Shown here: positions 5,068-47,664 of the stretch, piece after piece
Position numbering within the stretch: position 1 is the first letter of the stretch
Layout of the letters: every line of letters begins with the position of its first letter
Origin: Microthyrium microscopicum
Taxonomy: Eukaryota
Direction of reading: 5' to 3'
Assembly: GCA_010405405.1 (NCBI GenBank)
Contig: MU004233.1
Span: forward strand, 943,122 to 1,007,121
Length of the DNA stretch: 64,000 bases
Position numbers and translations under genes: made by a program
The notes under the pieces: model-generated
What the model was told of the DNA's origin: nothing
The model's input: only the letters and a program-made list of their open reading frames with translations
Database searches by the model: none

Positions 5068-7852
5068 CTACTGGACGACCTGTGTACACATATTCAGTCA
5101 GGCCATGTACTAAGCACAAGGGGCACAATGGGCGCATCACATACCTTTTCACGCAACATGCCCAACCACTGCGGCGCACTCGCTCCGCCATCGCTACGAT
5201 CCTCCACCAGCAGCGTCTGCGCCCATAGCTTCAGACTAGGTTCGCCATCCTCGCGCACCACATATAGGGGCGGCACGGTAATGCTGCCTACGCCCTTGGC
5301 GCGATGATCGCGGCTCTTTTCGATAACTGCGCGCACGCGCTCGCTAAAGTCGTTATCGAGTTCGGGCATCAGTGTCTTGCCCTGGTTGACAGCCATCTTG
5401 TCTTCGACGCCGAACACGTCTGCAATGAGTGCGGGTACGGCATCACGACCGAGCCACAGGAATTGCGTCTGACCATCGTCGATGAGGTACAGACCAAATG
5501 GCACGATGCGCTCAGAGGACAGGTTTTGTGCAGGTGGGAGGACAACTTCGTTGGTCTCGGGATCGGGCACACCAGCGCTGTCGGGCATGTCGTGTAGCGA
5601 GTAGACGCGGGGATAGATATACTGCATCAAGAGGGGTAGAGGGATCGTGGAAAGTAGACAGAGCGCGGCGGAACGTAAGTCAGTGGGAATTTGTGCGGAT
5701 TTGCGTAGACCAAGCTAGATGGATATTAGTAATGGTCCTTTGGTGATACTAAGTAGACGTACGTGTTTCATCAATCCAAGGAATAATATGGGTAAAGCTC
5801 GAAGGTTAGCTGGTAGTTGTAATCCACCTCCACCCATGTTGCCTCCGGCAAGTTCTTTTCTATATGTTTGCATAATCTCGATGACCTTGCTTTGAAGCGC
5901 ATCTCTTGCTGCTTCAAGCCCACTACCAAGGGCCCGTTCAACTGCTTTGTGGGCAAAGTAAGCGGTGATGGATTGCTGATCTGCTGATGAATAGACATTG
6001 GCCAAGGATTCCGTTGTTGGTAAGGCCAGTGTCATAACCCTTACACGTCGCTCGCCGTTACAAGTTGTGTGAAGAATAGCAGCTTGTAAAGAGACGTAAG
6101 GTTTCGACAGGTTCTCATCAATGGCAACTTCGACAACATATCCTTGATCGCGGGGGAAAGCCGGGAAAGCGCAGAGATCCGAACTACGATTGAAAAAGTT
6201 GCCATAAAATGCGTTCATCCTCAGACCAGTAGATGCGCGAACTCGAAGAACGGCCTCGAGGCCAATTTCAGCTGAAAGATAAGAGCCAAATTCGGTGGCG
6301 AACTTGATGGCATCTTCACTTTTTGCAGCGCTCCAACCAGGATAGAAGAACGTTTGTCCTCCGGTGTATCGAGGAAGATTGCTGAGAGACGCTACGTCTT
6401 GATATTGTGCCGAGAAAAGGAACATGTCAATCGAAACTTGTTGTTTGGAGCATTCAACCGCGAAGCTCTTATAAAAAGCGTTTCCGGTTTGAAGGAGTGC
6501 AGCTTCTTTGCTTGTGCCCAAGGCCTTCTTATCCTCTCTCATTTCAAGCTTACCGTGTCCCATATTTGGCAAAGTCGCGCTCAAAACCGAAAGCTTGCCG
6601 CCAGTGGAGGAGACAAGACGAAGACCAGCGCGCAAAGCGGATCCCATTGCGCATCCAGTGTTTTGGGTATCTTTGAACATTGATTGCAGTTTGCCCAAGA
6701 ATGACTCAATGTTTTGTCTGCATGCTATCAAATTGACCACCAAGTCCTCGGGAGTGGGAAGAAAAGGCTCGTCAAGATCGCTGACCACCAACATCTTAGG
6801 ATCAGTGGGCTCCGAGCCCTCCCCGCCATCTTGAGGAATACTAAAGTAATGCAGACTGGAATCAACCGCAAGGAATGCTAATTTCGTCCGACCGTCAGCG
6901 TTTGGAATCCGATCAAGGCTTTCCAATATAGAGCGCGCTACCGTGGCAAGAAGTCCGCTAGTAACAGCGTTAAAGCTGACGTCTAGGAGAAAGACGTACG
7001 TGAGCGCTTGCGGTGGCCGAACCATATATTCCTGGGGAGCGATGAATTCGATTACCGAGTAGTTGAGTTCTGGTCGCTGCCATCGGTCCACACTCTGTTG
7101 CGCGGCGGCATCCCAATCGAAAGCTTGCGGGACATCATTTGCCAGATTGCACATGTTACATCTCCACCGATGTCCATGGTCTAGAAATGTAACAAAGGTG
7201 TTTATGTAAGATCGACAGCGGCGACAACGAGAGATGACTTGATCGGTGCAAACAGGGACAGGATCTTCAGCATCGTGTAGCGACGTATATGGTGTAAGTA
7301 TTAGCGCGAATGGGAGTTTTGACTTTTTGAGGAGTGAATGGGTAGTTGGCACGCAGTTGAGAGTTGAACGGATGTATTTTGGATCGCCATTCGCGTATGG
7401 AGAGGGGGTAACACTCGTCTGTGAAGGTTAGCCAGATGAGACACGAATGGCCAGCGCCGACATACATTAGGAGGTAAATGAATGGGTGGAGGAGGATTAT
7501 CGAGCTCCTGAACCGTGAAAGGTTGGCCAATGAGATCTGATGGGTAGAGTTGATTTGATGCCTGCGGAGGCATCTGAGCTGTAGGCTGTTGTGGAGCGCC
7601 TTGTATATTCATCTGGCCAAACTGTGATGCAAGCTGCTCTTGAGGCGCTGGGGCTATACCTGGAGCTCCCGGCATGACTGGAGCTCCAACCTGCGATACT
7701 GGCGTTGCCAGGCCCTGTGGGTTGCCCATCATAGGTGGTGGAGGTTGAGCTTGTTGCTGCTGTTGTAGGCCAGAGTTTTGACCGAAATCATATGCCTGCT
7801 GAGCATAGGCTCTCTTCTTTTTGGGGCCACCGGCCGCATTTTGTGCATCCAT
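5068..7852 (-). CDS. SEC24: COPII coat subunit Sec24. Introns ~7465-7419, 5762-5715, 5144-5080; ends ...MLREK|VVQ*
   Basis: Zn finger [10 protein letters not shown]...WRCNMC, trunk/v[31 protein letters not shown], gelsolin-like [13 protein letters not shown] introns join the ORFs in frame. Confidence 0.97.
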
Positions 7853-8703
7853 AGCGTATTGTTTGCGAGTGTTTGTTGTTTAGATGTGATGTCGGGGGAA
7901 GCTAAGGAGGGGTGTAAATGGTCAATTGGTAGAGAGGGAAACAGATCAGGTAGCGAGGTTTATAAGAGAGACTGGTGAAGGGACAGATGGCAAGACGGCA
8001 ATAGGCAGCTTAGTGATAGAGCAACATGGGGAAGATGAAGGCGACGGGAAGGACATTTAATGGTAAGAGCAGGTCGAGCTGTCTGTTAGCTGTGTACTCT
8101 GATGCCAAAGGCCACATGAACCATCAAATCCACTGCACAGACCTCAGCCGGAGCTCGGTACAACTAAAATCCGCCCATTGCTTCATCAGCCAATCGTGTC
8201 GTTCTGGTCCTTGCAAGGCTGAGATTCAGCCTGATTCCAGATTACACCCCTGGACATTCTGATGTTTGACAGAGCAGCAACGGAGCCATCTACTAGATTG
8301 ACAGAACTTGTCACACCCCCATCGACTTTACTGGCTTCCATCTAACACGTATTGTTATCAAGTGCTCTATTCACTAAAGCATGTCTTCATTCCTTGAGGT
8401 TTTAATGAGTGGAATGGGAAATATAGCATATTTTATTTAGAAATGTTGGAGGGAGCCATGCAAGTTGATGGATGGTACTTGATGCTCTCACGACAGCTTC
8501 AGGCTGCACTTTCGCCTCTACAACATTTGAGGCAATCGCTAACTGTCAAGGAAAGAGCTGCCAGTACTTCTCCTATCTTGACAATCTTCTCTTTGTTGAC
8601 CCGACTTCCAACCTTCCTCTCTCTTCTCTTCTCATCCTCGTCCGCTTAGAATTACCACATTTTTCATCCAAACCACCACATTCGTCCACTATATTTCTTT
8701 ATC

Positions 8704-10071
8704 ATGGCCACCACAGATACCACTGCTAGAAAGCTCCACATCGTTGACAATACCATCGTTGTTAAAGAAAGTATCCCACCTAAGGCGCCTCCAGAAAGGT
8801 TAAATGGGTTCAAAACACTCAGATGGTGGAGAAACAGGCCACCATCAAACGCTGCCGTATCCTTTGTGCGCAAGGAAGTGCTGGTCACCGGTGCAGATTC
8901 CGACCTTGGGCTGGAAGCAGCAGTGAAATATGCCAAAGCACATTGCACGCTGCTGATCCTCGGCGTCCGCACCGTAGAGAATGGCGAGCGAGCGAAAAAG
9001 AAGATCCTCAAGCGGTCGAAACGTCTCTGTGATAAATTCATCACAATCGTGGTTATGGACCTCTCTACCTCGTCAGCGGTTGAAAGGACGTTCACCGAGA
9101 TCCGCGGTGCGCTGAGCCAATATGAGCTGACACTCGACATCGCCTTGCTCTGTGACAGCCCAGTCGAACCCATACTCAAGCCCACCTATGACTGGGAAAC
9201 ACCGCTACAACTCCATACTCTTAGAACAGCATATCTGGCCTGGCTTCTTCTACCACTGATTAATACGGGAAAACCGAGCGAGCCGGGCCATCTGACTTTT
9301 GTCAACAGCACATCTCGAGGTATGAACAATGTCGCACGTCCCATCAGCCGTCATGGCTACAATCAGCCCGAACCAAGAGAGGATCTTGAAATTCCCATAG
9401 CACACTATGGGTGATGATTGGAAGCAATTTGAATCTAATGATGTCCAGGTGCGGTCCCGAGAAAATGGTTTCAAGACAATTTCTTGAGGAAAAAAGCGGC
9501 GAACTCATCGTATCCTTTACCGAAATCGTATCAAAGCGTCAAAATGCTGGGACTGGCTATCATGCAAGGTTTTGCGAGGATAGTCGACGTGACCACCTTC
9601 AACCACAGATCCTACCAAGTGGTTGTCAACGCATGCTGTCCATATCTATGCAAAAGCAACCTAGGACGCAACTTTCCTCTACACGTACCTGGCACAATCA
9701 ATCCGCTTCAATACATACTTGCTCGCTCAGCCAAAGAAGGGGCAAGAACTCTTGTCAGTGCTACCGCATTAGACCACGATGGTCACCGGGGCTTTTAGCA
9801 AAATGACACTTTGACAGCGTAGGTAGGCTTTTTGACTTGCCATAACAAGCATGCTGACCTGCAAAGGGGTACCGAGGGTCCATTGGACGACTACATGCAA
9901 CAGATTTAGGAAGCGGCTGTTGACTGGCTTGTCGAGGACGGATGTACAGATCTCCTCAATGCACTAAATGAGGAAAAGGCAAGGACAGAGTCTGGTCAAA
10001 GTGAAAGCACAAGCACTCTGGTCCATCAAATTACTCGCGGGGAGCCTCATCCTGGAACACTCGTTGGATAG
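8704..10071 (+). pseudogene. Short-chain dehydrogenase/reductase-like gene with two in-frame TAG codons (9796-9798, 9907-9909). Introns ~9320-9448 and ~9819-9866
   Basis: VLVTGADSDLGLEAA (degenerate TGxxxGxG), LILGVR, MDLS, LTFVNS, catalytic YQSVK, NACCPYLCKSNLGR, ARSAKEGARTLVSA, then GF*QND and QI*EA. Confidence 0.75.
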
Positions 10072-11943
10072 TTTAGGCAGTAATTATTCGTATCAAACAT
10101 AACACACTATTCCATCGAGTCTGATGGCTCCCATCAACGCTGCTAAATATAAGATGAGGTATTGCCCGTTGTAATCTATAAAGTGCCGAGAATTAAACGT
10201 CCTCCATAAGAATTGAAACACTCGATGACATTCGCGGTAGATGGCAGCCATCGTATTTCATGGGAGAACTCTACTTGTCCTGTCTAGCCAGCAAAGCTGA
10301 AGTGGTCACGACAATTGCTTTCTCCTCGTTGGTAATTGTCGCAATTTGGATACTTTCACACGTTAACCAGGTTAATTGTGCCGTTATCGCATTCCAAGTG
10401 GTTAAACAAAATAAACGGCATGATCCTATCAAAGGCAAGGTCTAGCACCGCACCTCATAACAAGAGTATATTTAACGTCCCATCTCAAATCGATAATCTT
10501 CTTGACTGTGCACGGACTCGGATTAGAGACTTCGGCAGCAAAACGTAACACATGAGAGCCATCGAAGAAGCTGATGGGAAGCGCCATGTATCTGGTTCAA
10601 AGCTTGGCATATATCACGACGCATATTGTCCAGACAGACAATGAGTTGGCAGCTTGATGGCGCGCTCCCATCAGCTAAGGTGTCTCCAATCGCACATTAT
10701 GACGAATATATGCATTGTTTGCGGGCACATGCAATGGGGAATTAAATATCTTTATACTGTCAGAGGAACTTAAAGCACCCGATGATTGAGAGCAACGGAT
10801 GTGGCAGACACCGTACTTCATGGGAGTTGCCAGTCACTTGATCGATCCTTCGAAAGGTCCATATGTGCAATCGATACATTCACCCAGATGAAAGCGCCGC
10901 GGATACGCAAGAGAACCGGTGGAAAGATTGAATGACATGAACCCATCACTTGCGACGTATGTCATCTGATGAAGAGTGGAGGCACTACTCCGTATTGTCC
11001 ATCTTACGCGATTGCCTTGACCCTTTCCTGCATAGTCGATGGGCAACTCAATAGTCGAGACCAGAAGAAAGTTGGTGGGAGCCAGCAGAGTTGATCGGGT
11101 GAGTCATTCATTTTTACCATCTGTTGGCATGGCTACCTGGATAGGTATGGGGAAGGTAGATGTATCTTGCTGGGAAGATATCAAGATGCGGTCGTAGGGA
11201 CTTGGCGGATCGATTGAAATCTTGTCATCAGCTGAAGAACCTACGGAAGGGATGTGAATACATGGAGTTCTCAAGGAGCAAGGTGCGACACGGTGGCCAG
11301 TGTTGAGTGCAATCAAAGAATTGAACAAAGGGTAGATAAGAGACCACAAATGCCACGGCGGATTACAAACTTGGATGGACAATCGAGTGTATCTCGAAGC
11401 CAGCGGTAGAGACGTTAGACGAGCTGAAGATGGAACAGAGCTCGATGATCGGCTATGACTGCTCAATTAGGACTAATTGTCGGACGCTAGTCGCCGGAAA
11501 CGGGATCGGGCGCTCCCGCACTCGTTGCTTGCTCATCTTCGGCACATGGATTCCATGAAAGCAAAAAAACATAATTTTGTATGAATCTGTCAATCATATT
11601 TTGCCTGTTCCTCAAATGAGAGCACTAGTGAAGCGCTCTCGGTATAGTTAGTAGAACTATCAGAACACGAGTGAAGTGAACTGGTGCTTAGTTACAAGTC
11701 AGTAATTGTCTCCAGGTATGTACTAGCAGAGTACTCACTAGCCAGCCTTTCTAGCTGAAGCATAAGAAAGAAGTGGGTTTCAATCCAAGCTTAATCAATT
11801 CTTGCATGGGAATAAGATATTCGGTCTGATTTTTTCTTTTGCATTTTTAAACTATGGCACTACATCGTATATAAATTCGTTCACCCGGCTCTTTGTCAAT
11901 TTAGTTCCCACGCAATCCAACAGCACTTCTTACTCTTTCAATC

Positions 11944-13278
11944 TTACTCGTCATCATAGTGAGGACATCCCCACATGTCATGGCCAACTCCTGTTTTATC
12001 GCAAACAGTACAGATCAAGTCATTGTTTTCAACATGGGCATATAGGCATTGCTGCGCAACGCATGTCTTCCATTTGCAAAGCACAAACTTCTTTCCGGCC
12101 CTCTTGTTTCCATAGAGCTTTACGTATTCCAAATCTTCGGTGATGTGCTTAAAGGTACACTTGTTGTCTTTGGATTTTGCGCAGAACTTTCCCCACGCGC
12201 ATCGCTTTTGATATTTTGACTGCATAGCTGCCTGCCGATTCTTGAATCGGTTCGCCTCGCCTTGCACCTTAGTGAATCCATCGTCGGTCAGGTCTTGCCC
12301 TTCAGTGCTGGGGAGAAGGTTCTTGGCTTCCGAACGTTTGAGCTCATCGAATTGGTTAAAGATCTTCAACTCGAACTTGATTGCGCCCTTCTTGCCGTGT
12401 AGGGCAGAGTACTCAAAATAGGTGTAGACATCGATATTGAAAAGCCCGAGGGTCTTCTTCATTTCTTGATATGCCTTCGTCAACTGCTCATGACCGAGTT
12501 TATCTGCACTTGCAGGAATAATAATAAGGTCGTTGCTGGTCGCTCCTTCACGCTTTGGCGAAATAATATGGCGAAGACTGGACAATTTAAGACTTTGAAT
12601 GCATGCATCAATAACGTCAGATTGAGGAAGCGGATCCAGTATCACAATACTGTATGGGCTTATAAGACTCTTTTCAGTATCGAAACACGTCTCATTGTAT
12701 CCAATCTCTTTTAGAAGATTGTCAAGGAGGTGAACTGTAATCATATCTGTCGACTTGTAGACATTTGATAGACTGTCCTTCCACGAAAATACAGACATTC
12801 TCTTGTTTCTGTTGACAACCTTTTCAACTGCTGCGTATAAGTCCTTGTCTCCAGAGACAAGAACAAACTCGCTCAAAACGCCATTATAATAGTCGTCGAG
12901 AGCATCCTCAACAATGTCCGTGGCAATCGCTACATCAACAAGCTTCTCCATGCCAGTCCATGTGCTTCGTGGATAAGTTGTGACATTCAAGCCCTGAAAC
13001 TTCATTACTTCTAAAATGGCATTGCCAGCTTTAGAAGACATTGATCCATAAAGATTAAACTCAAAGTTCGCTGATGTAGGAAAGCCTCTTGTAAGAACTG
13101 ATCCAAGCTTAGAGAAGTCTAGTCTCCAAGTAGGATCTGATTCTGTTTTTAAGCGCTTTTCCCGGGCAGATAATTTCTGTCCTTGCAGCCATAAATTGGA
13201 ATTATCAATATAGATTCTAATGTTGAGCTCATCATCACAAACAGGTGATTTGAGAGCGCCTTTAATTTTATTTGGCAT
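11944..13278 (-). CDS. NYN (LabA/DUF88 PIN-like) ribonuclease-domain protein with two C-terminal CCCH zinc fingers and a CCHC knuckle; intronless, 444 aa
   Basis: IYIDNSN, WRLDFSKL, LYGS, EKLVDVAIATD, LVSGDKD, VFSW. Zinc motifs: C-x5-C-x7-C-x3-H, C-x4-C-x4-C-x3-H, C-x2-C-x6-H-x4-C. Confidence 0.85.
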   Translation of the reverse strand: MPNKIKGALKSPVCDDELNIRIYIDNSNLWLQGQKLSAREKRLKTESDPTWRLDFSKLGSVLTRGFPTSANFEFNLYGSMSSKAGNAILEVMKFQGLNVTTYPRSTWTGMEKLVDVAIATDIVEDALDDYYNGVLSEFVLVSGDKDLYAAVEKVVNRNKRMSVFSWKDSLSNVYKSTDMITVHLLDNLLKEIGYNETCFDTEKSLISPYSIVILDPLPQSDVIDACIQSLKLSSLRHIISPKREGATSNDLIIIPASADKLGHEQLTKAYQEMKKTLGLFNIDVYTYFEYSALHGKKGAIKFELKIFNQFDELKRSEAKNLLPSTEGQDLTDDGFTKVQGEANRFKNRQAAMQSKYQKRCAWGKFCAKSKDNKCTFKHITEDLEYVKLYGNKRAGKKFVLCKWKTCVAQQCLYAHVENNDLICTVCDKTGVGHDMWGCPHYDDE

Positions 13279-14482
13279 ACTGATTCGTATGTAATAAAAT
13301 TTAGAGGATGTATTTTGAGTGTTTCAATCGAAGTCGACTTTGAAAAGTTGGGAAATAAAAGATGGTGTTCAACCAAAAGTTTTTGAGAATACAGAATAAA
13401 CGCACGGGAAAATTGATGGACACTGTAGTATTTATAGTCAATCTTATGCCTCCGATAGCGGCTGGCTAATATGTTTCAATTGGGCGAGAATCTGCAGACC
13501 TAAACGTTCTCAAAACGTGCGGTGTTTGAGTAAAGTTTCTGAAACATTTTTTATTTCCAGGGCAGCCAATAGAGAACAAAACAACACTCAATACCTATCA
13601 GCTCTACCGGCTCCCGTCACTCACTTTCTCTTACATTCTTAGTCATTATCATACCCGGAGGATTGCTTAGTACATCGGTTAGACTCATAGCTACGGTGAA
13701 AAGGTGCCCGTTGTACACCTAGCAGTTATCTTACTTGATATGGCATGTTATCCAACAATTAGCCGCTCAGGGGTACTCTGAGACGCCCCAAGGACCACGA
13801 CAGTAGTCCTACAAATACAAGTAAACATCTCTCACTTTGCGATAGCTGCGTGTTCATTGCAGGTTTTCGTTACGTCTACCATTGGGAAAATCGGTATCGA
13901 CGCCATCGGCTCAGCCACCGCGTCTGCGCTCCATCTGCTCTGGGGGAAGGACGGATTGGATAGTTCTACTGACATTATACTATGTGCACGACGTGCTCTA
14001 TCTACGCCGCTCAGGATAGCTTGAGTTGTCAGTGTAGCAGGCACAACCCCATTGCTCCTCTTGCGGATTTGGCACCTATAGACTGGCTGGCCATCAGCAC
14101 CAAAGCATACCATGTTTCAGGTACTGCATATCGTTATCATAATGGTCTACAAAATTGGTCTGATCTCACACATGGATTGCAGTCTTGCAGAATGTGATGG
14201 GCACAAGGAACGCTTCGCTCTCTATCTCTCTGCACAGCAACAGGCGGACATTCTTGAAGTCATGATTGATTGCCAGAGGAGATGCATCACTATGACGATG
14301 ATGCCCAATAATTACTATACCAGGTAGGTTGGTAGACGCCCATGTCTGACAGGTAGTAGAACAGCCTATTGGAACTCCTCAAGTCCCGCTCCTTCATACT
14401 CCAGTCACTTCTCCATCCTGCAAAAGAACTTTGTCTGTTATGACTTTTCCGGAGTGGCCTCGAGAGTACTTCAACGCGGCCC

Positions 14483-15100
14483 TTACATATCCAACACTGT
14501 CTCGTAATACTTCCCAACCAACCGTTCGCGAACGTAGCGCTCAACTTCATCACTCAGGCTCTCCTCGTACTCTGCCACGTCCTTCTGCAGTCGCTTGTTG
14601 ACCTCTGTCTCAATCCGAGCCGTCAATTCCTCCTCCGTAGGTATCGATGTTGACTTCGACTTGAGGTTCTGGTAATGTGCGCGAGCGAGCTTCTCGACAA
14701 CAGAGGTTCGTTCCTTCTTCCATGTCTCCTCCTGGGCTGCGATCCGCTCGTTGTAGAGCTGTTCCACGCGAGCTTTGACTTTTAGCTCCACCTTGTCGAT
14801 CACGTAGACTTTTTTTAGGAAGGCAGGATAGTCAGGATCGTAGGTTGTGGATTCTTGGCTACCAGATTTGGGCGCCAGAGATTCTGTGTCGTCGGCCATT
14901 GCGCGTCGACGTTTGGTAAGCCGCGCAGTGTCTGTATTATGTGCGTGAAAGGAAGTATTGATATCGCTCGCAGGTGTGGTGACTGGAAAAGATTGCGAGT
15001 GTCGGCGCTTGGAGCGCTGGGGCAAGGTGTTATGTTGTTGATCTTGCGGAGAACTCAAAGGCGCCGTTTCCACTTCCATATTGTCCGAGTCTGAATCCAT
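14483..15100 (-). CDS. Hypothetical protein with a disordered N-terminus and a coiled-coil-like C-terminus; probably one more short exon after a GTAAGG donor at 14486
   Basis: About 205-codon ORF from ATG 15100 (MDSDSDNMEVE) with an E/K/R-rich helical C-half. No family recognised. Confidence 0.55.
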   Translation of the reverse strand: MDSDSDNMEVETAPLSSPQDQQHNTLPQRSKRRHSQSFPVTTPASDINTSFHAHNTDTARLTKRRRAMADDTESLAPKSGSQESTTYDPDYPAFLKKVYVIDKVELKVKARVEQLYNERIAAQEETWKKERTSVVEKLARAHYQNLKSKSTSIPTEEELTARIETEVNKRLQKDVAEYEESLSDEVERYVRERLVGKYYETVLDM

Positions 15101-16309
15101 TTCAACCAAACAAAGAGATTTCTTGCTGTCGAAGGAAGACAATCGGATAGTGTTTGACTTTTCGTGGGAAATTTGAATGAAAGTAGGAAATCAGAATTGT
15201 TGATGAGCAGTGGAGATAACAAATAGCAGGCAAGTGTGTTGAAGGGTAAGAGGTACAGGTCTTCGAGCTGCATCAGTGAAAAAGTCATGAAGGTTTTTGA
15301 GGTGGTGCAAAAATACTAGTGAAGGTAGCTTGGGGAAAGCATGAGGTGACTTCGATATTCACTGAGACTTCTTGTCCCACGACTCCTTACGTGCGCTACA
15401 AGATATTGTAAGCACTATTCTTCTGTAAAGAATTGATAGATAGGATGAATTTCCTTGCTATTATCCGCCATAAATGTTACCTTTCCAGCCTGCTTCACTA
15501 ATAGTAGACCTCCATGGCAAACACACTGAATCATTCTCACAATGATCGTATACTGACTCCTGAGACTTGGGTGTAGTTATATAGATATCAAGGGGGTGCT
15601 TCTTCATAGTATAGATTTCAAATTTTCATGTTCTTGGTGCTTCTGTCAAACCTTGAAAAGCTAGTGATGAACAAAAGATGAAAGCTACTGGACCTACAGC
15701 ATTAAGATGTAGATATTTATAACTTATCATGAAGTCGGTGTTTGCTTCTTGAGCAAATTAGAGATACAGCTTGTAGCAAGAGCCTCCGTAAGGTAGAAAA
15801 CTGATTGGCCCAAATGTTACGGGTTAAAGCTTTCGCAACGCTTGAGTAACACTGAAGGATGGCAAGATCTTCACAAACTCACTCCCGGCTGTCTACAGAT
15901 TCTTTGTTCGCTGGCAGAAGACAGATTAGGAGACAGGTCTTCATAGACCCGTTACTGAATGTATGCTGTGGATCAGGAAACATGGTGTTCAAAGCAAAAC
16001 GGGCGAACGCATATCCAGAGTAAAGAGGCCAGTCGCCAATGATCAGCATACATCTTCGAATAGAGTCTGATCTATAACTATCAACTTGACCTACAGCCAC
16101 AATACCAATTCCGATGACTTGGACCATTAGCCTAAGCGCTATCGGTATTGGGCAAAGCACTTCGAGGAAACGTGGTGCTCTCCGCTTTATCAACACAGAA
16201 GTCTTATAAGTCGTAACACTCATGACGCCCTTGAGATATCAAGCTTGAGTGCTAATTGTTACCTTCCAGTCAAGCAATTACTCAACTTTGCTTGCAGACA
16301 AATCACAAA

Positions 16310-19098: not shown

Positions 19099-20246
19099 TG
19101 GAACCATTCTTTCAATAATAGGATAGACTTTTCGGAGATGAAAAAATAGAGCCATTTGGGCCATACTCTCATCGAAGGCGATGTCTGCCATAAACCCTCA
19201 TCAATATGAAATGCTATAATGACCATCAACTGCCTTAAATATTTGCGAGACTATCGACCGCGATGGTAAATGAAGCAGCCGCTGTTGAAAAGACGATATG
19301 GCGGACATGACAATTGATGGAGATACGCACACTTTCCATACAGTCCGCCAAGGTTATAGACCAGACAGAAATCGAATCCTGCCACGTTTGAAAAAGGGAC
19401 GGCATTCTCTCATCAAAAGCAGTGCGATGTAAAATAAAATATATGATATCAGAGCATAGAGTGACCGAACCATCGAACTTGATGGAAACAAAGAGTGAAC
19501 CAAGGTTTGTTTGGCGAGAGTGACAAATTAGTGATGAAACATATGGTGCTAGTCTCTATTTGTCCTAGCGTATTTTCACCAGCAGTTGCCTTTATTAAGG
19601 GCAGCCCCTCCGCTTCTCACTCTTTCTTCCCCAGCTCTTTCTCCTCTCACTAATTTGACCCTCAGCACTTTATTTCATCAACAACTCCCTCAAACCGCCC
19701 TTTCCATCCTCAAAATCCTAATAACGTGAATCTCCAGTCTCTCAATACCTTGATATCCACTTTCTGAGCTGGCACAAGTTCAAACAAACTGCCAATCTTA
19801 AGCTCTTACCCTATCTAGCCAACGATTGCCGCCTTGGGCAGGCCACGATTTCATCACACCCGCCTAAGGTAGGCACCGATTACATCACAGTGAGGTTTCG
19901 CTGCTTGAGCTTGAGCTTTGGGGAAAATAGGTGGAACAATACTGTGGTTGGAAAGGTTATTGTTGTACCTGGCCGCTTGTCTAGTTTTGATCAGAAGTGT
20001 CTTGTCGCGCACTCACAAATCAAAGAAAATATTTCATACCCATTTACCCCTTCTAACTGTAGCGCACTCTTGATACTTTAAGCTGCGCTGCTGTGGAAAG
20101 TGTCCCTGATCGAAAACTCAGTACTACTCATATCTAGAGGAAGGAACGACTGCAGATCTGCCGCCTCAATCACGACTCAACAAACGCATTTCAATCCCTT
20201 CTCGCCAACGACAACCTCTCATTCAACGCCCTTTTAACCTTTCAAG

Positions 20247-21899
20247 ATGTCTTCCTGGGTGTTGTTCAGATTCAAATCCGCACGAGACGCTACACGTATA
20301 ACCTTCGACGGTACCGGTATCACCGTCTTTGAACTCAAACGTGATATCATCCTCAAAAATCAACTCGGCGACGGCAAAGACTTCGATCTGCGAATTTTTG
20401 ATGCGGGCACAAACGAGGAGTACAACGATGACACAGCCATCGTGCCTCGCGCATCATCAGTGATAGGTCAGCGCGTGCCAACCACCCGACCCGGCTACGG
20501 AAAAGCCGCACGATACGTCTCTGGACGCGTACCTGTCCAAAGCCGCCGAAACGAAAGACCAAGTGCTAGTAGCGCATCCAATCCAAATGACTTTGCTGCC
20601 ATGAACAACGCCAAAACCGAGGAGGAGAAGATGGCACTCATCGCTGGCGGTGGTGGTCAATGGCAAAAACAACAAGAAGCCATGTCCCTTGCCAAACGTG
20701 TTGCATTCCAAAAGCCTGGCGGCGCACCACGACCTGGTGGCTCTGAAGGAGGGCCCCCACCACAAGGCTACATTTGCTATCGATGTCAACAGAAAGGTCA
20801 CTACATCAGAGATTGCCCAACGAACGGCGATCCCAACTTTGTACCCAAACCACAACTCAAGAAGACCACCGGCATTCCTCGATCATTCCTGGAGAAGATC
20901 GACAAGAACGAAATACTGGAGGAAGATGAGAACGGCAAGCCCAAGGGCTACATGGTAGATGGCGAAGGAAATCGGGTTCGTGTCAAGACGGACACTGCAA
21001 CATGGGAGAAGGAACAAGCTCGTCAGAAAGCTTCCGCAGCGAAGAAAGAAGCTGCAGAGGAAGCCGACAAGGAGCTAAAAGAGCGTGGCTTAGAGTGTGA
21101 CCTCGATCAACGCATGTTCGAAGTCCCTACAAAAACATCTTGTTGCCAGAAGACCTATTGCTACAATTGCATCGACGAAGCCCTCGTTAACAACGACCTT
21201 GTCTGTCCAAATTGCGGCACCGAAAATGTTTTGATTGATGACCTACTACCCGACAATGAAATGGCCCTCAAAATCAAAGCTTATCGCGAAGAGAAAGCCG
21301 CTCAAGCCAAAGCCAAAGAGTCTGCAGCTGAAAAGGCAGTCGAGTCTGTAGAGACAAAAACTGAGGGAGACAATGCAGGACAAAGTCCCAAGTCAGAGCC
21401 CGGTTCACCCGCAAACTCTTCATCTAAAAAACGCACTGCCTCAGAAGAGCTCATCAATGAAAGAATTCCAACTGCGCCTGCTGCCATGCGCAAGGAACAA
21501 GAGCAAGAACGACTGTCCCAGCAAGGCTGGAACCCGCAATTCCTCGCAGATATGGAAAACCTCAGCAAGGGCAGTCTCCCAACAAATATGCCACCAGCCG
21601 GACCTACCTTCCCCATGAATCCCATGATGCCTAATATGGCAATGATGGGAATGATGCCTAATATGATGGCCATGAATGGCATGCCCAACATGCCTTATAT
21701 GGGCATGAACAACCGCCAAAATTGGCAGCCTCAGGCCCCAGTTCAGTATCCCAACGGCCACAATCAGTATCCCAACGGCCAAAATCAGCAACCTAATGGC
21801 CAAAATCAGCAGGAGGAAAGCCCCTACATGCGCCAACCAGTCAATCCTAACCGCTCAAAGCAGAAGCGGTTACGTCCTAGCGAGTATAAAGCGCTCTAG
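20247..21899 (+). CDS. MPE1: Mpe1/RBBP6-like cleavage and polyadenylation factor subunit
   Basis: DWNN ubiquitin-like N-terminus (FRFKS...FELKRDI), zinc knuckle CYRCQQKGHYIRDCPTN, KKTTGIPRSFL, RING-like CC..YC..CI...CPNC. Confidence 0.95.
   Translation: MSSWVLFRFKSARDATRITFDGTGITVFELKRDIILKNQLGDGKDFDLRIFDAGTNEEYNDDTAIVPRASSVIGQRVPTTRPGYGKAARYVSGRVPVQSRRNERPSASSASNPNDFAAMNNAKTEEEKMALIAGGGGQWQKQQEAMSLAKRVAFQKPGGAPRPGGSEGGPPPQGYICYRCQQKGHYIRDCPTNGDPNFVPKPQLKKTTGIPRSFLEKIDKNEILEEDENGKPKGYMVDGEGNRVRVKTDTATWEKEQARQKASAAKKEAAEEADKELKERGLECDLDQRMFEVPTKTSCCQKTYCYNCIDEALVNNDLVCPNCGTENVLIDDLLPDNEMALKIKAYREEKAAQAKAKESAAEKAVESVETKTEGDNAGQSPKSEPGSPANSSSKKRTASEELINERIPTAPAAMRKEQEQERLSQQGWNPQFLADMENLSKGSLPTNMPPAGPTFPMNPMMPNMAMMGMMPNMMAMNGMPNMPYMGMNNRQNWQPQAPVQYPNGHNQYPNGQNQQPNGQNQQEESPYMRQPVNPNRSKQKRLRPSEYKAL
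21744..21812 (+). repeat. 21-bp coding tandem repeat, about 3 copies (QYPNGHN/QYPNGQN/QQPNGQN)
   Basis: cagtatcccaacggccacaat cagtatcccaacggccaaaat cagcaacctaatggccaaaat. Confidence 0.8.
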
Positions 21900-41350: not shown

Positions 41351-42125
41351 TATTAATGATGTGGCCACGCGATCGAGGATCAATGGAAAAAGGTAAAACG
41401 GTGATCAAAAGAGGATCAATCGGCAGATGTGACTGTTAGTAAACAGCAGTGACGGAGCTGGAAACTGTGTGGGCGGGGAAGCAAAACAGAAAATTGAACT
41501 GACGTCGCGACGCGCCAGGGAACGTGCGCGACATCGTGAACTTGTCACTTTCCAGTCTTCGCATTTTAGCACCACTGCCTTTTCACATTTTCACATTTTG
41601 ATTCTCGAACTCTCTATTCGCTTTGAAGATCATTTCTTATGTCTGTGTTTTTATGTAAGTATAACTCCACGTCTTTGATGGCGAATTGCTCCCACCAAAA
41701 TGTCCCGCATTGGGGATCCAAGCAAGTGCCGGGTGGCAAGAACAACTCTTCCATCTTTCCAACCAAACTACTCTGAAGTCTTTCAAATCCTTACTCTGAC
41801 AAGTAGAGAAGCTCTTGAGTTTGGCATCAGTCATACAATGACACAAGAGAGGCATTTAATGCTGCTTCTAGACTCCTCCCGCGTGCGACATAAAAGGGAC
41901 AGGCCGCTCACCCGCAAAACTTCTTTTAGCCACATGATCAACTTGCAAATAAGACTGAACGTCTCCTCTTTTGATAAAAATTTTACTTTATTTCAATTTG
42001 TTCGTGTCTTCGAACTTCTCTGAGGGCTCGAATCTCGATAATCCTCAGCTTCAACGCTAAACTGCGTTGGCACGACCAGAGCTCTTCACAACTCCAGACG
42101 CTACACAACAATGCCGTGGGTACTA

Positions 42126-42175
42126 CACCCAAACCTAGAATGTGGTTGCGCGCGACTCTCTCCCCCCCATGCATT
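42126..42175 (+). repeat. Left TIR; imperfect subterminal similarity extends to ~42230
   Basis: cacccaaacctagaatgtggttgcgcgcgactctctcccccccatgcatt is the exact reverse complement of 45857-45906. Confidence 0.97.
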
Positions 42176-42553
42176 AATTGCTAGTTTTTTCAGGATTCTA
42201 CCAATCACACGCAAAATTGCCTATAGAATTGGAATCTATGAAATTCTACTAATCATAGGTTAATTTCTATGCTAAAGATTTTAGTGCTGGTTTATGGCGT
42301 TAGTATGCTAGATCTTAGTGTTTTGGTATCCAAAATAATTAGCTTCTTTTAGTCTACTAAGATAATATCATCTAGTATTCTACCATAGCATCTAATCTTC
42401 TACCATAGTAATTTAACTATTTTAAGGAGACACCGTTACCAAAACATGTAAGATTTTAGGTATTATTGTATGATATCTAGCTAGTCCCTATTACTTTAAC
42501 TTTCTAAGTCCTATCTTTATCAAATTTCATCACAATTTGACCCTACCACTATT

Positions 42554-44143
42554 ATAGCGCCTATAAAGGAGTCTAAGAAGAAGAAGAAGATTATTCCTTA
42601 GTCTTTACGACGTTCTATACGTAATCCAATTCCCTCCGCTATCGCTAGAGCTAATGGTATTCTTCCTACTACTATATCCTCTTTAATTACTTCAACACCT
42701 CCCTTAAGCTACCCTCTATTACTTCCTCATCCCTTAGGGTCTTCTTTAAGTACTCAAATCGAACTAGAAACTCAGTATCCTAAATCTTAACCACTGCCAG
42801 AATCTCAACTTCCTAAGGTTATAGAAATTGACCAATCAGAGGCCAAGAACGCCACAAACAACGACGAAGATCTTCCTCCCCTTGCTATTAACATAATAAT
42901 AAAGTTTTTGGTTAAATATTAAGGAAAGGAGATAATTATAAAGGCAGAATTCTAACACATACATATCCAATGTCTTTCTAGTCTTTAAGAGGCCTATAAT
43001 TAAGTTGTGCGAGATCAGGATAGGCAGTTTACTACTAAGAACCGTCCACGCTTCAACTATTCGATCTCTTTAAAGTTATTAATTATGTCGTTAACATTAG
43101 TTATGTTAAGGAAGATTGTACCAGATTTTGCTTGCCCGTTGCTTAAACACCCTCTAGAGGCTGATCTTAATCAATTCAAGCCTCTTAACACTAAAATCAA
43201 TAACTAGTAGGAAACATATTAGACTTAGCAACCCAAATTTACCCTACTTCTAGTCTTCAAAGCTTCACAAAGCGCTACAGGAAGTAATAACGTTATCAAA
43301 GCTTCAACTTCTACTATGTCGCGAGAACTTTAAAATCAATGTCTTAAAGCAAGCCAAACGGATCCTACTAACGCTGTTATTACCACTAATTCATAGGCAT
43401 CTCAGAATATACCTAATGCTACTATCTTGTAAGAACTTTGCGAGTTGAAGATGTCTAAATTAATTAATAAGTATAAGTGCCATTATACTACCTATCCTTG
43501 GTATAAGAAGGAGTATTGTTAGGTTAATAGATGCTATAACTATTATATCTTAAGCTAGGATTAGCTTAAGATTTAGGTGAGAGAGTAGGCTCTTACTATA
43601 CTAAATGTAGACTTAACTTAGGCTTCTATAGCTATTTATAACCAGCTTTGACACTATCGTTCTTTATAGTTCCTAAGCAATAATTAGCCTTCTGAAGGTG
43701 TTGCTATTACTAGATCTAGAGTCGTTATATATAATTACCTTAGACTATACCTATCTAGATTAGCTATAACGCCACCTAGTAGTAAAGATATTGCTCCTCC
43801 TATCTCTCTAATACTACGAAATACTACTATTTTTAGTAAGCTAAGTAGCTTTAAGAAGTAGGCGCTAGTTAGGCTTACTAGCGTTAGTAATTAAGATTTA
43901 ACTAATCCTATTGCTATTAAGGTTAAAAAGATTATAGAGATAATGCATAAACGCTTTATGCGTCCCCTTAATGTTATCTATAATAGTTCTTATTATAAAT
44001 AGTTACTTAATCACGGTACAAATAAATATATCTTAAGTTCTATTTAAGATTATGTTTAGGAATAGTAGTCCAAAGATTAGAGTACTTAAAATCACCCTAG
44101 TCTTGTTAAGAGACACTTTATACGTATTACTAATATAGAATGA
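42554..44143 (+). pseudogene. RIP-inactivated second ORF of the transposon (~529 codons, unknown function)
   Basis: One continuous frame from ATA-GCG-CCT (inferred ATG; MAPIKESKKKKK) to TGA 44141-44143. Internal stops are almost all TAA/TAG, as RIP makes from CAA/CAG/TGG. Contains YKCHYTTYPWYKKEYC*V...YIL...LKI*. Confidence 0.8.
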
Positions 44144-44466
44144 GTTTAGTTTTGATAGTATTTGCCCAAAAATCAATATTATAGTTATTCAAAAGTTATA
44201 AATATCTAGCCTAAATACAGAATATTGTAAGGTATTAGCTAAATCTTGCTATTATAATTTAAGATTATGCATAAGCTAGCTAGAATAGGCAATAGACTAA
44301 CTAAAAGAAGTATAGGTTAGGGTTCTAGAATCTAGATCTAATAAAACATAACTTAAGATCTCTACAAAGTGTCTAATCTAGAAGATTACTACTAAAACTC
44401 TACTTTATTACTATACAATCTTTATGACAAAACAAGTAAATTTAATTCTAAAAAAAATACCCCTAC

Positions 44467-45574
44467 CTAGCCAGTCTATCTAGCATATTTAAAATGCTTC
44501 TTTACGCGTCGTTTATCCTTTCCTAGCATAAGAATTCCGCGCTTAAAGACTTCTCTAAAAATTTTAAGTCTCTCTTCCTAATTTCTTGCAATATCGTAAT
44601 TAGGATGATGCTGCTTTAACTAAGACTTTAGGTCTCTAAAGAATGCTTTAATTAGATTAAGGTTAGGGGAATAAGGTAATAAATATTCTAATTAAACTCT
44701 ATGCTAGTTACAAATATCTTAAACATTACTATTATAATAAAAGGACGCGTTATCTATTATAATAATACTATTCTAAGCTAGGTAGGAATAACAATAGTTA
44801 CGTAGTAAGTCGTTATTAAGCTAATCTTTAAAGCCTTCTTAATTAGTATTAGCTTCATAAATTGCTTTATCTAGTATGCCATTTATGGTATAAGTAAGTA
44901 ATAAGTTAAGGCGCTTTTGATACTCTAAATAGTCATATAAGATTATATCTTTACCTATAGGACTCTAGCTTATTTAATGGTGAGTATCTAAGGCAGTACA
45001 ACCACTTTCATCTACAAAAATGAGCTAGTTAACATTATAAATCTTTATACGTTTATAGTATGCCTAGCGTTAAAGTCCATAGCGTTATTTTACGATCTCT
45101 TTAACCTAAAGAACATATAGAATTAGTATAAAAACTAACAGATTAGTTACTATAATAACTTACTCACTTTCTAGTCTATTTAGCGCGCTTCAGCTTAAAG
45201 AAGATAATAGATCTGCCATAGTTAACGTTTAGCTCATGCCACATTAGAAGAGATAACTCGTCAACGAAGTAAGTCCCCTTTAGGGCTAGGACTTTAAGCA
45301 TAAAATTGCGTATAGAGTTAGATATTTACAAGATGCAACTAAGGGTGTATTTAGGTCGCTTAACATACTCTAAAGTTACTATATCTAATCGATGGCGATA
45401 GCGGCGAATAGTATAATGACTACAACTAGCGTGTTTAGTAATAGCAGCTACTGAATAGCCTATTTGGAGCATCGTAATAATAGTAACACGTTTATTACTA
45501 GAGATATAACGTCCAGGTCAAGATAGGATTCGATCCTATTCAATTTAAGCTACTTCTAACTAAATAGGGTCCAT
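44467..45574 (-). pseudogene. RIP-inactivated DD34E transposase with a probable 58-bp intron (45163-45106)
   Basis: HTH region with TYFVDEL; LIFVDESG; IIDNASFY; EYLLPYSPNLNLIK (= YLPPYSPDLNPIE after reversing RIP). 34 residues lie between the second D and the E position. Confidence 0.92.
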
Positions 45575-45856
45575 AATAAGATAAGATATAATGGTACAGG
45601 ATAAGGATGATTAATTTATATGTAAATAGGTAAGAAAACATTAAGAGACGTCTAAACAGACATGTCCTAAAGACTAGCTAAATGCGAGCTTTTAAACGGT
45701 TACCAAAACACCAAAATTGGTACACTAAATCTTCTATACTAAGCCAAAATTAGGTACACTTATACTCTAGTACGATATAGTTCTGATTTTCTACCTCCCA
45801 GCTTCATAGGCAATTTTACGTGTGATTGGTGGAATTACTGCAGGAATGCGAAAACA

Positions 45857-45906
45857 AATGCATGGGGGGGAGAGAGTCGCGCGCAACCACATTCTAGGTT
45901 TGGGTG
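45857..45906 (-). repeat. Right TIR
   Basis: aatgcatgggggggagagagtcgcgcgcaaccacattctaggtttgggtg followed by TA. Confidence 0.97.
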
Positions 45907-45987
45907 TAAGCTAGTCCGTTCAATCATTAACCATTAGCCATTTTTGGTCTTCACCTCCTTCTCCTCGTCATTAGTTATTGGAATGCT

Positions 45988-47664
45988 TTATTTCTCGGCC
46001 TTGCGTGGCTCGAGTAGTAGTTGACCGGATGGACCGCTCTTCTCCATGAAGCCGTCCTCGCGGGTGAAGACACGGCGTCCACGGAGCCATGTTTCGCGGA
46101 CGACACCTTTCATCGTCTTGCCCTCGTATGGGCTGCACTTGTTGCGGAAGAGCATGGTACTTGGTTGAACCTAGAAAATCGTTAGCATTCAGCGTATTTA
46201 TGTAATGGTGGAGAACTTACCACAAACTCTGCCTCATCATCAAAGACGGCAATATCAGCATCATACCCAACAGCAATATCGCCCTTCGTTCCCTCCAGGC
46301 CAACTTGCTTCGCAGTATTAAGACAGCACCACCGCACCACATCCTCGATACTGATCTTGCGCTCCTGGCCTTCCGTCCACAGAATGCTAAGTCCTAGACC
46401 GACACTGCTGATTCCACCCCACGCAGCGAAAAAGTCGCCCTCTGTGCCTTCGACTTCGGAACTCGATACGGCGCCTGGCATGTGTGCGGGCAGTAATTTG
46501 AGATCTGGTGTGCATGGCGAGTGGTCGCTGACGACGGTCTTGATCACGCTGTCGTCTTCGCGCGTTAGCTCGTCCCATAGACCGTCTTGGTTGGATTGTT
46601 CGCGGATGGGCGGGCAGCACTTGTGTCGGGTGTCGCCGGCTTTGATGCGCTCGGCGGCTAGGGAGAGGTAGTGGAAGCATGTTTCGGCTGTGACTTTTAT
46701 GCCGTTGGCGCGTGCTTCGCGGAGGATGGGGATGGCCTGGATGGCGGACAGGTGGACGATGTGGAGCGGGAGGTTGGGGGCTAGGTGGGCCAGTGAGAGG
46801 ATCTCTTCAATGGCGTAGGTCTCGAAGGATGGTGGGCGTGAGTCGAGGAAGGTTTGATAGTGCTCCAGTGGACCAGTGGGTGCGAGAGGTGGCAGTGAGT
46901 GTTGCACGTCGTCACCGACGGATGCGGCGATGGGTGGGATCATCTCGGCATGGAACATGCATGTCGTTGGCTCGTCGGCGAGTTGCTCGAAGGCCTTGCG
47001 GATGTCTTCGGATGAGACGGCTGGGAACTCATCGACCTGTGTGACATGTTAGGTATGATTGTATTGAGGAGAGGAGTATACTTACACCACTGTCTATTAG
47101 GAAGCCTTTGAATCCACGGACACCTTCACGGACAAGAGCTTTGAGTTCCCTGGCATTGCCAGGAATGAGACCGCCATAGAAGCCGACATCTACCCAACAT
47201 TTTCCTTGGGCGGCGGCAATCTTCTCTTTCAGGCCGGCGACGGTGGTAGTGGGTGGGATGGCATTCAGCGGCATGTCAATGACAGTAGTGACACCACCAA
47301 AGGCAGCAGCACGAGTGCCAGTCCAGAAGCCCTCCCATTCAGTCCGACCAGGCTCGTTAAGATGCACATGAGCATCAACAAGACCCGGGATCAGAATCTT
47401 TGGCGAATGGTCGACATAGAAGGTGCCAGGTGGGAAGCTTGTCTCCGCAATCACCGAATTGAATATGGACTCAATTTTACCAGTGGAATGCGATATGATA
47501 ATCGTAGCAGGAGTAAGACGACCACCAATGACTGCTCTTGAGGAAGCCAAGACAGTGATTGGCGGGCCGTCAATGCCTGGCGACGATGCACCACTGCCGG
47601 TGGTTGTGGAGATGGAGGCATATGAGGCCGCCCTGGCTATGTCGACTGTTGCATTAGGAGCCAT
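45988..47664 (-). CDS. DAL1: Allantoinase. Introns 47085-47037 and 46220-46171
   Basis: PGLVDAHVHLNEPGRTEWEGF, GGVTTVIDMPLNAIPPTT, HIVHLS, ETCFHYL, KCCPPIR, VSDHSPC, AWGGISSVGLGL, FRNKCSPYEG. Confidence 0.97.

Follow-up and report, generated by a model that had tools for sequence, protein, structure and literature searches.

In animals, nucleases that come with their own RNA-recognition modules, such as Regnase-1, MARF1, and KHNYN acting with ZAP, hold a central place in the control of mRNA and in defence against viruses, and to our knowledge little comparable has been characterized in filamentous fungi. The gene examined here lies on the minus strand at 11944..13278 of a 64,000-nucleotide stretch of DNA from the fungus Microthyrium microscopicum (NCBI GenBank assembly GCA_010405405.1, contig MU004233.1, positions 943,122 to 1,007,121 of the forward strand). 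We call this whole stretch the window, and all positions refer to it. The gene encodes a protein of 444 amino acids in which an NYN nuclease domain, a predicted ferredoxin-like domain, two CCCH zinc fingers, and a CCHC knuckle-like finger follow one another on a single chain. On balance, we judge it probable that this protein is an intracellular, metal-dependent endoribonuclease of the LabA/MARF1 type that is guided by its fingers, and that it is the product of an accessory gene.

The closest described systems are MARF1 (Limkain b1) and plant DNE1. Passages in PMC6294520 describe the NYN domain of human MARF1 as a Mn/Mg-stimulated endoribonuclease that acts on single-stranded RNA and needs a patch formed by Asp358, Asp426, Asp427, and Asp452, and they report that MARF1 limits retrotransposon RNA in oocytes. 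MARF1 and DNE1 are both described as working together with the decapping machinery to act on mRNAs of the host (PMC6294520; 10.1101/2021.10.01.462782). Eukaryotic LabA-like PIN domains occur mostly in fungi, according to passages in Matelska et al. 2017 (PMC5499597). In a different setting, passages in Kaur et al. 2021 (PMC8195603) describe cnidarian and brachiopod proteins in which an NYN RNase is joined to a TRADD-N/Death-like adaptor, and interpret them as effectors against RNA viruses or retroelements. The NYN fold, MARF1, DNE1, LabA-like fungal NYN proteins with OST-HTH (PMC5499597), and NYN fusions to Death-like adaptors (PMC8195603) are therefore already in print, as these portions of the sources attest. 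The family that combines the NYN, ferredoxin-like, two CCCH, and CCHC elements is uncharacterized and sparsely distributed.

An earlier note on this DNA, made from its letters without database searches, had proposed an intronless gene with the motifs IDNSN, EKLVD, and SGDKD, two CCCH fingers, and a zinc knuckle. Every motif that it quoted is present in the translation (IDNSN at residues 24-28, EKLVD at 111-115, and SGDKD at 142-146), and the coding sequence, 444 codons plus stop, is a single uninterrupted open reading frame (ORF) from ATG to stop. A word-index search that covered 5.8 billion proteins returned 22 relatives beyond the window's own protein, at 28-41% identity, and homologues of about 445 amino acids cover 94-98% of the query in a colinear fashion, with a best E of 2e-93. 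Because the ORF aligns end to end with these homologues, no intron need be assumed, and a colinear contig of 1479 nucleotides from a public sequencing run likewise supports the absence of introns. Given full-length homologues of this quality and a Pfam NYN score of 50 bits against a gathering cut-off of 24.2, the NYN protein is, as judged from its sequence, far beyond chance.

Seven public sequencing runs hold part of the stretch; four of them are probably from the source of the DNA, and none is on record as RNA. Four runs were compared with window positions 11400-14000. The 1479-nucleotide contig comes from run X5, whose kind is guessed to be RNA; it has a depth of 126 and is colinear with 11887..13362 on the minus strand, with 0 differences and 0 gaps. 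It extends 84 nucleotides upstream of the ATG and 57 nucleotides past the stop, and X5 cover is absent at 11400-11834 and 13401-13574. The DNA run X1 gives one piece over the whole 11400-14000 stretch, and runs X6 and X7 contain merely 408 and 255 nucleotides of the ORF at a depth of 3-4, from which we draw no conclusion. These data suggest a probable unspliced transcript of the gene with untranslated regions (UTRs) of about 84 nucleotides at the 5′ end and about 57 at the 3′ end. Since the contigs come from a run of uncertain kind, transcription is probable, short of proof. A candidate TATA box (TATAAA at 13431..13436, minus strand) is located about 70 nucleotides, or 69-74 when counted from each of its ends, upstream of the 5′ end of the X5 contig. 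The 444-residue sequence has no N-terminal hydrophobic stretch, and thus nothing suggests secretion. Separately, a second X5 contig of 236 nucleotides (13579-13814, depth 8.3) maps upstream of the NYN gene in a stretch without an obvious ORF; it could represent a transcript that is short or weakly expressed, or else the UTR of the gene next to it.

The nuclease domain spans residues ~19-192 (12703..13224, minus strand). Pfam NYN (PF01936) matches residues 22-170 with an E of 5.7e-13, and the same family is matched by 22 of the 23 proteins in an alignment, called A1 here, that consists of the window protein and its 22 word-search relatives, nine of which come from named fungi. When the window protein was scanned with hmmscan at E<=1, PF01936, PF22683, and PF06590 alone were returned. 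An AlphaFold2 model built from 23 sequences has a mean predicted local distance difference test score (pLDDT) of 75.5, and block means in its NYN part are mostly 72-96, with dips to 56-58. Comparison of residues 12-194 with 48,161 PDB representatives by the structure search VIA gave the LabA-like protein VPA0982 (2qip; Z 17.1, 157 residues aligned, root-mean-square deviation (rmsd) 2.9) and mouse MARF1 NYN (5yaa; Z 15.9, 146 aligned, rmsd 2.5), followed at Z 8-9 (top 8.9) by other PIN-like nucleases, namely T4 RNase H, ExoIX, and Rae1/YacP. Foldseek also found 2qip (E 5.7e-6, template modelling (TM) score 0.70) and the human MARF1 NYN domain (6fdl, TM 0.67). The checks that the earlier note had suggested, domain confirmation by hidden Markov models and by structure prediction, point the same way, with NYN found by Pfam and a PIN-like fold found by both VIA and Foldseek.

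Sequence comparisons with the PDB add detail to this picture. A profile of the family reaches 2qip with an E of 1.7e-3 and 21% identity, and it places VD115 and GD144xD146 of the window protein on the WD and GDGD motifs of this LabA-like structure. A single-sequence search of the PDB with the window protein produced no match at E<=1, and MARF1 was absent from both the sequence and the profile matches there. PF11977, the profile for Regnase, N4BP1, and KHNYN, gave no hmmscan match even at E<=1. A Regnase chain is not among the best 50 VIA rows, although absence from this list does not exclude the family. Because the fold matches are to 2qip and MARF1 and there is no PF11977 match, we assign the predicted nuclease to the LabA/MARF1 type, nearer to the LabA-like group by sequence.

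How far the comparison with MARF1 and DNE1 extends can be judged from the protein as a whole. Like them, it has a PF01936 nuclease of closely similar fold with a conserved acidic set, which in the window protein comprises D25, D48, E111, D115, D144, and D146. As candidates for the metal site that Asp358, Asp426, Asp427, and Asp452 form in human MARF1, it has D25, E111, D115, D144, and D146; these are kept in 57-62 of the 63 relatives described below, and D115, D144, and D146 fall on motifs of 2qip. The order of parts is also shared with MARF1, in that the nuclease is followed by candidate RNA-binding modules on one chain; directly after the NYN domain, at the position of an RRM in MARF1, a unit of RRM-like topology is predicted. 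However, the identity between the NYN domains is only 10-13%, and the window protein is far shorter (444 versus 1742 amino acids). Unlike MARF1 and DNE1, it has three zinc fingers instead of OST-HTH (hmmscan at E<=1) or Pfam RRM domains, and OST-HTH is not among the 11 families matched at E<=0.1 by the 23 proteins of alignment A1. Matches to 2qip, together with a JGI label of ‘LabA/DUF88 family’ on one relative, indicate that the NYN subgroup is apparently the one called NYN.COG1432 in passages of Matelska et al. 2017 (PMC5499597). The usual partner of that group is OST-HTH according to the same passages, whereas the window protein has the ferredoxin-like, CCCH, and CCHC elements, and the word CCCH is absent from the main text of the article.

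The earlier note had likened the protein to Regnase-1, N4BP1, and KHNYN. This remains a valid functional analogy, since in each case a PIN-like, metal-dependent endoribonuclease is combined with a CCCH finger that helps to select RNA, a combination that is only predicted here. The family differs, however, because the window protein matches PF01936 and not PF11977, and it has two CCCH fingers and a CCHC finger in place of the single CCCH finger that adjoins the nuclease of Regnase. The fingers of ZC3H12A (Regnase-1) and ZC3H12C match the finger-1 region of the family profile weakly (E 0.051-0.32).

Between nuclease and fingers lies a domain that the earlier note overlooked. When residues 186-325 were modelled on their own from 74 sequences, the result predicts with a pLDDT above 90 a beta-alpha-beta-beta-alpha-beta unit at residues ~206-295 (12394..12663, minus strand). 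The best VIA match to this unit has a Z of 7.2, and the RRM of PARN (Z 6.8) appears among generic ACT, ribosomal S6-like, and ferredoxin-like matches. A Foldseek search of the PDB with the unit found nothing at E<=0.001, Atlas structure rows for it are generic ferredoxin/ACT/PII-like folds with TM scores of 0.25-0.34, an Atlas feature search with residues 196-444 from which PF01936 was excluded gave no usable match, and hmmscan at E<=1 detected no Pfam RRM in the window protein. The model thus indicates a conserved ferredoxin-like domain of no assigned family. It is followed by a linker (residues ~309-339; 12262..12354, minus strand) that has low confidence (pLDDT below 50) and variable, gapped columns in alignment A1. 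One Atlas lead, to Ascomycota proteins that combine DUF7923 with tandem CCCH fingers, had a score of 0.76, which is below the trusted level, and it was not confirmed; DUF7923 is absent from the hmmscan results at E<=1, and our literature search found no paper that mentions it.

The C-terminal part of the protein carries three candidate zinc-binding elements, all read on the minus strand. CCCH finger 1 (12145..12201) has the spacing C360-x5-C366-x7-C374-x3-H378, CCCH finger 2 (12034..12078) has C401-x4-C406-x4-C411-x3-H415, and the knuckle-like finger (11965..12012) has C423-x2-C426-x6-H433-x4-C438. The first CCCH finger begins at residue 360, about 170 residues past the end of the NYN domain, with the folded domain and the linker in between. 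When the family profile was compared with known structures, it matched the tandem CCCH proteins 6nzl (E 1e-5), 9y10 (3.9e-4), tristetraprolin (1m9o, 4.6e-4), and TIS11d (1rgo, 4.7e-3), and each of these matches spans both fingers. The resemblance to tristetraprolin and TIS11 lies in these profile matches (E 1e-5 to 5e-3) and in the presence of two CCCH fingers ~22 residues apart, but the spacings of x5/x7/x3 and x4/x4/x3 differ from the C-x8-C-x5-C-x3-H pattern of those proteins. Nab2-type fingers are similar in their short spacing and give a weak Pfam match (E 0.042). A match to PF00642 at E<=0.1 is seen in seven of the 23 A1 proteins. Canonical zinc knuckles have the spacing C-x2-C-x4-H-x4-C, from which the C-x2-C-x6-H-x4-C element departs. 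This element has no PF00098 match (hmmscan at E<=1), and its region of the family profile matches retroviral nucleocapsid knuckles weakly (E 0.01-0.05). The earlier proposal that an NYN domain is fused to two CCCH fingers and one CCHC finger on one chain is borne out by the translation.

Conservation was assessed on 63 hand-picked full-length relatives, including named fungal and animal members, that are 19-41% identical to the window protein. At the first nuclease motif and its surroundings, D25 is kept in 59 rows, S27 in 61, N28 in 60, D48 in 59, and R52 in 61; at the later motifs, E111 is kept in 60, K112 in 59, D115 in 57, G143 in 62, D144 in 62, and D146 in 58. Eleven of the 12 zinc ligands are likewise kept in 59-63 of the 63 rows, with values of 62-63 in finger 1, 62 for C401, C411, and H415 of finger 2, and 59-62 in the CCHC element. 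The remaining ligand, C406, is kept in 49, a lower count that is probably due in part to alignment slip. Every residue counted in this way is present in the window protein. Such retention at an overall identity of about 25% argues, at the level of sequence, that the enzyme is active and that its fingers function.

With an apparently intact NYN site and three fingers on a single chain, a design that binds and cleaves RNA is the natural reading. The reading frame, its domains and fold, the kept residues, the spread of the family, and probable transcription are results of the analysis, and from them we infer catalysis, RNA binding, and targets. In this mechanism, the NYN catalytic domain would be tethered through the ferredoxin-like domain and a flexible linker to the C-terminal array of three fingers. 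The array would bind single-stranded RNA and bring the bound transcript to the NYN site, where D25, E111/D115, D144, and D146, with Mg2+ or Mn2+, would cut it internally. The ferredoxin-like domain might provide a further contact to RNA or protein, or a regulatory input.

Several observations weigh against this interpretation. First, the fingers of the window protein score under every Pfam finger cut-off, the best being a Nab2-like zf-CCCH match with an E of 0.042 and 14.1 bits against a cut-off of 27, and their spacings are short and non-canonical. Second, the middle domain has no specific match and, as judged from sequence, lacks the aromatic RNP-type residues of classical RRMs, and for these reasons any role given to it is a guess. 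Third, passages in Matelska et al. 2017 (PMC5499597) include some LabA-type NYN proteins without demonstrated nuclease activity, whose function is listed there as unknown. Fourth, X5 counts as RNA by guess alone. Finally, a literature search outside subscription journals found no paper that describes an NYN/ferredoxin-like/CCCH/CCHC architecture; in the part of a paper on HEPN that came up, NYN and CCCH are mentioned in unrelated contexts only. Even so, we continue to regard the finger-guided LabA/MARF1-type endoribonuclease as the probable identity of the protein, and it could serve either regulated mRNA decay or the restriction of viral or retroelement RNA. The evidence for a regulator and for a defence factor is roughly balanced.

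The idea of an ordinary post-transcriptional regulator, in which a MARF1/DNE1-like or Regnase-like factor trims a particular set of the mRNAs of the fungus itself, for example in development or stress, and has no role in conflict, draws on the nuclease class itself, which is that of MARF1 and DNE1, and on a tandem CCCH layout like that of tristetraprolin-type mRNA-decay adaptors. It also agrees with the location of the gene among core genes and with a base composition at third codon positions that is within the range of its neighbours. Moreover, aligned relatives that include named fungal and animal members retain the active-site residues and the zinc ligands at an overall identity of 19-41%, which speaks for purifying selection that has long acted on a single molecular function. 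A regulator of this kind would, however, be expected in most Pezizomycotina, yet the named matches are few and scattered. Nor does the window protein have a LOTUS/OST-HTH domain (hmmscan at E<=1), and one relative is fused to a Death domain. We consider a purely regulatory role a genuine possibility, though not the probable outcome.

A profile search for the family that covered 1.84 billion cluster representatives yielded 1605 proteins under a limit of E<=1e-3; the number drops to 704 with E<=1e-10 and to 252 clusters with E<=1e-30. Among the matches listed, 59 of 150 cover profile positions <=30 to >=427 in one stretch. Named members from the word search are Verruconis gallopava, three Fusarium species, Staphylotrichum, Cercophora, and Dactylonectria, to which 30 cluster look-ups added Remersonia, Podospora aff. 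communis, Plectosphaerella, Fusarium sarcochroum, F. decemcellulare, and Podospora didyma, for a total of about 14 named Pezizomycotina species. When the word-index search was repeated from the 63-row alignment, the 24 proteins that it found were essentially those of the first search, with no new names. Neither word-index search matched a model ascomycete, although long invariant motifs should give shared words. The clusters to which family members belong mostly have a size of 1. Patchiness among named fungi, which the earlier note had suggested examining, is thus evident, as judged from the word-index search and 30 cluster look-ups, which are a sample and not a genome census. Full-length relatives also exist in Branchiostoma belcheri (713 amino acids), in a cluster of 293 members with a protein of the coral Pocillopora meandrina among them, and in the sponge Halichondria panicea, and so the family is not specific to fungi. 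Taken together, these records indicate an accessory gene of patchy occurrence, whose family is old and common to Pezizomycotina and several marine animals.

Two further database entries deserve mention here. One protein of the fungal type (P0019; 393 amino acids on a contig of 4468 nucleotides; 32% identity, 83% cover) carries the NCBI label ‘Candidatus Bathyarchaeota archaeon’, and it was left out of the tree described below; it is probably encoded by a eukaryotic contig that was binned into an archaeal metagenome-assembled genome, that is, contamination. Another (P0141; 769 amino acids) is very AT-biased and rich in asparagine and isoleucine, and it has two tandem copies of the NYN domain with its following domain and no zinc fingers, which suggests that the pair of NYN and middle domain is a unit also outside fungi and animals.

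The relative with a Death domain (P0160) is an 850-amino acid protein that emerged from a Pfam scan of 46 longer relatives. At its N terminus is a Death domain (E 3.7e-11), followed by a weakly matched RING-like finger (E 0.017-0.1), and after these come the NYN domain, the middle domain, a pair of CCCH fingers, and a CCHC finger. Its identity to the Branchiostoma protein is 38% across ~660 residues, and against the window protein its NYN domain has 26% identity (E 5e-17) and its finger region an E of 3e-5. This joining of Death to the NYN cassette recalls the fusions described in passages of Kaur et al. 2021 (PMC8195603), whose proteins may or may not belong to the same family. A relaxed Pfam scan found no TRADD-N between Death and NYN in P0160 or in another relative (P0103), and by Pfam there is no other adaptor domain in the 46 longer relatives. 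In contrast to the effectors in those passages, none of the 23 proteins of alignment A1, the window protein included, has an adaptor, NLR, or HET partner domain (Pfam). By analogy, the P0160 fusion raises the odds that the family has a role in conflict or immunity; this support is circumstantial, it comes from one protein of 46 in the animal branch, and it does not establish such a role for the stand-alone fungal protein.

A dedicated defence effector would take this analogy to its end. The fungal protein would be a free-standing form of the effector module seen behind Death adaptors in marine invertebrates, and it would restrict mycovirus or retrotransposon RNA or trigger suicide by RNA degradation. 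Such a function could explain why only ~14 named fungal species, with no model ascomycete among them, were found for the family, when the same kind of search with the neighbouring housekeeping gene Mpe1 returned at least 537 proteins. It would also fit the mostly single-member clusters, the long terminal branches of the tree (median 0.71), and the order of P0160, in which a Death domain stands ahead of the NYN, middle-domain, and finger module. Precedents are the anti-RNA-virus or anti-retroelement interpretation of NYN-adaptor fusions in passages of PMC8195603 and the restriction of oocyte retrotransposon RNA by MARF1 in passages of PMC6294520. On the other side, the Death domain is present in one of 46 longer relatives, which have no other adaptor domain, the fungal proteins lack adaptor, NLR, and HET partners, and the gene has core housekeeping neighbours with no sign of a defence island. 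The patchiness, as noted, is that of a search sample rather than a census. We therefore hold a dedicated defence effector to be plausible but unlikely.

The relationships within the family were examined in a quick maximum-likelihood tree of 74 selected rows (full-length single-stretch matches plus most word-search relatives; LG+G4, with support from the Shimodaira-Hasegawa-like approximate likelihood-ratio test (SH-aLRT) only, and midpoint root), from which fragments, two-stretch matches, and one protein of 897 amino acids (P0024) were left out. The window protein is inside a 31-row clade (SH-aLRT 97) to which 13 of the 14 rows from named fungi belong, and it branches near the base of this clade with a branch length of 1.01. 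The rows from Branchiostoma and Pocillopora fall in a separate clade (support 99), and the sponge row groups with Podospora didyma in a third (support 98). Terminal branches are long, the backbone of the fungal clade does not resolve, and Fusarium rows occur at several places.

The position within a fungal clade bears on the earlier suggestion that the gene was possibly acquired horizontally. A gene that arrived recently by transfer or derives from a mobile element, or a gag-like knuckle taken over from a retroelement, might be signalled by the GC content of the ORF (0.428 against a median of 0.481, at the 11th percentile of same-size windows in the stretch), by the absence of an intron, and by the ORF-poor stretch downstream. 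Passages in two reports list LabA-like NYN genes among transfer candidates in Aspergillaceae and Rhizophagus (PMC11898892; PMC5982333), and the knuckle-like finger does have the slight nucleocapsid resemblance described above. However, no direct or inverted repeats flank the NYN gene, and no transposase, reverse transcriptase, or integrase ORF is near it. An origin from a transposon was rejected because flanking repeats are lacking. The protein of the neighbouring gene Mpe1 (20238-21899; DWNN plus knuckle) offers a useful yardstick: its best match is 65% identical to one protein, and identities to named fungi, spread over several Pezizomycotina classes, are 43-54%. Since even this housekeeping protein reaches at most 54% to named fungi, the host must belong to a poorly sampled ascomycete lineage, and the best identity of 41% for the NYN protein consequently fits vertical descent and not foreign origin. 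The suggestion of horizontal acquisition is thus left without support, and a recent transfer or mobile origin seems to us very improbable.

Base composition leads to the same assessment. The GC content at third codon positions (GC3) of the NYN ORF is 0.459, inside the range of 0.452-0.623 for ten neighbouring ORFs. Two of these, the Sec24 exon (0.452) and the beta-lactamase-fold ORF (0.454), have practically equal values, and the other eight are higher. Elsewhere in the window GC falls to 0.28, far more AT-rich than the NYN ORF. The gene is therefore modestly AT-richer than its neighbours, as the earlier note had it, but its GC3 is not anomalous.

The same note had placed the gene among orphan or decayed sequence, and this description holds for the immediate flanks alone. 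Downstream, from ~9800 to 11900, no ORF longer than 138 amino acids exists in any frame for about 2 kb, and on the upstream side Pfam matches nothing in the nearest ORF (14483-15190). The wider neighbours, however, are Sec24 (5094-7879), a short-chain dehydrogenase (SDR), a methyltransferase, a beta-lactamase-fold protein, Mpe1, Cns1, and SHMT. Because ordinary core genes surround the ORF-poor flank, we view the NYN locus as part of a core region and not as a degraded island, and the gene looks vertically inherited in this genome. As an observation in its own right, the 9800-11900 interval between the dehydrogenase gene and the NYN gene is an unusually long intergenic stretch for so gene-dense a window. 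Farther away, a strongly AT-rich block occupies 42000-46000 (GC 0.28-0.37 in 1-kb windows), with no ORF of 180 amino acids or more between 41132 and 46182; it looks like a degraded repeat, possibly altered by repeat-induced point mutation, or another kind of gene-free island.

A broader and more speculative proposal would unite the fungal and animal branches. The NYN/ferredoxin-like/2xCCCH/CCHC cassette could be an ancient opisthokont RNA-restriction module that is wired to Death domains in marine invertebrates and is free-standing and constitutively expressed in some filamentous fungi, where it would recognize and cut mycovirus or retrotransposon RNA. Perhaps its ACT/PII-like middle domain gates the nuclease through a ligand or a partner. 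We give this proposal a small chance of being correct, slightly smaller than that of a defence role for the fungal protein by itself.

Whatever its role, the NYN gene stands for an architecture that is compact and conserved, lends itself readily to testing, and is common to scattered fungi and basal or marine animals. If this architecture is an RNA-restriction module, it would link fungal with invertebrate innate immunity, and it would provide a small single-chain enzyme with workable targeting rules. If the protein is instead an ordinary decay factor, it would still represent an unstudied branch of the LabA/MARF1 nucleases.

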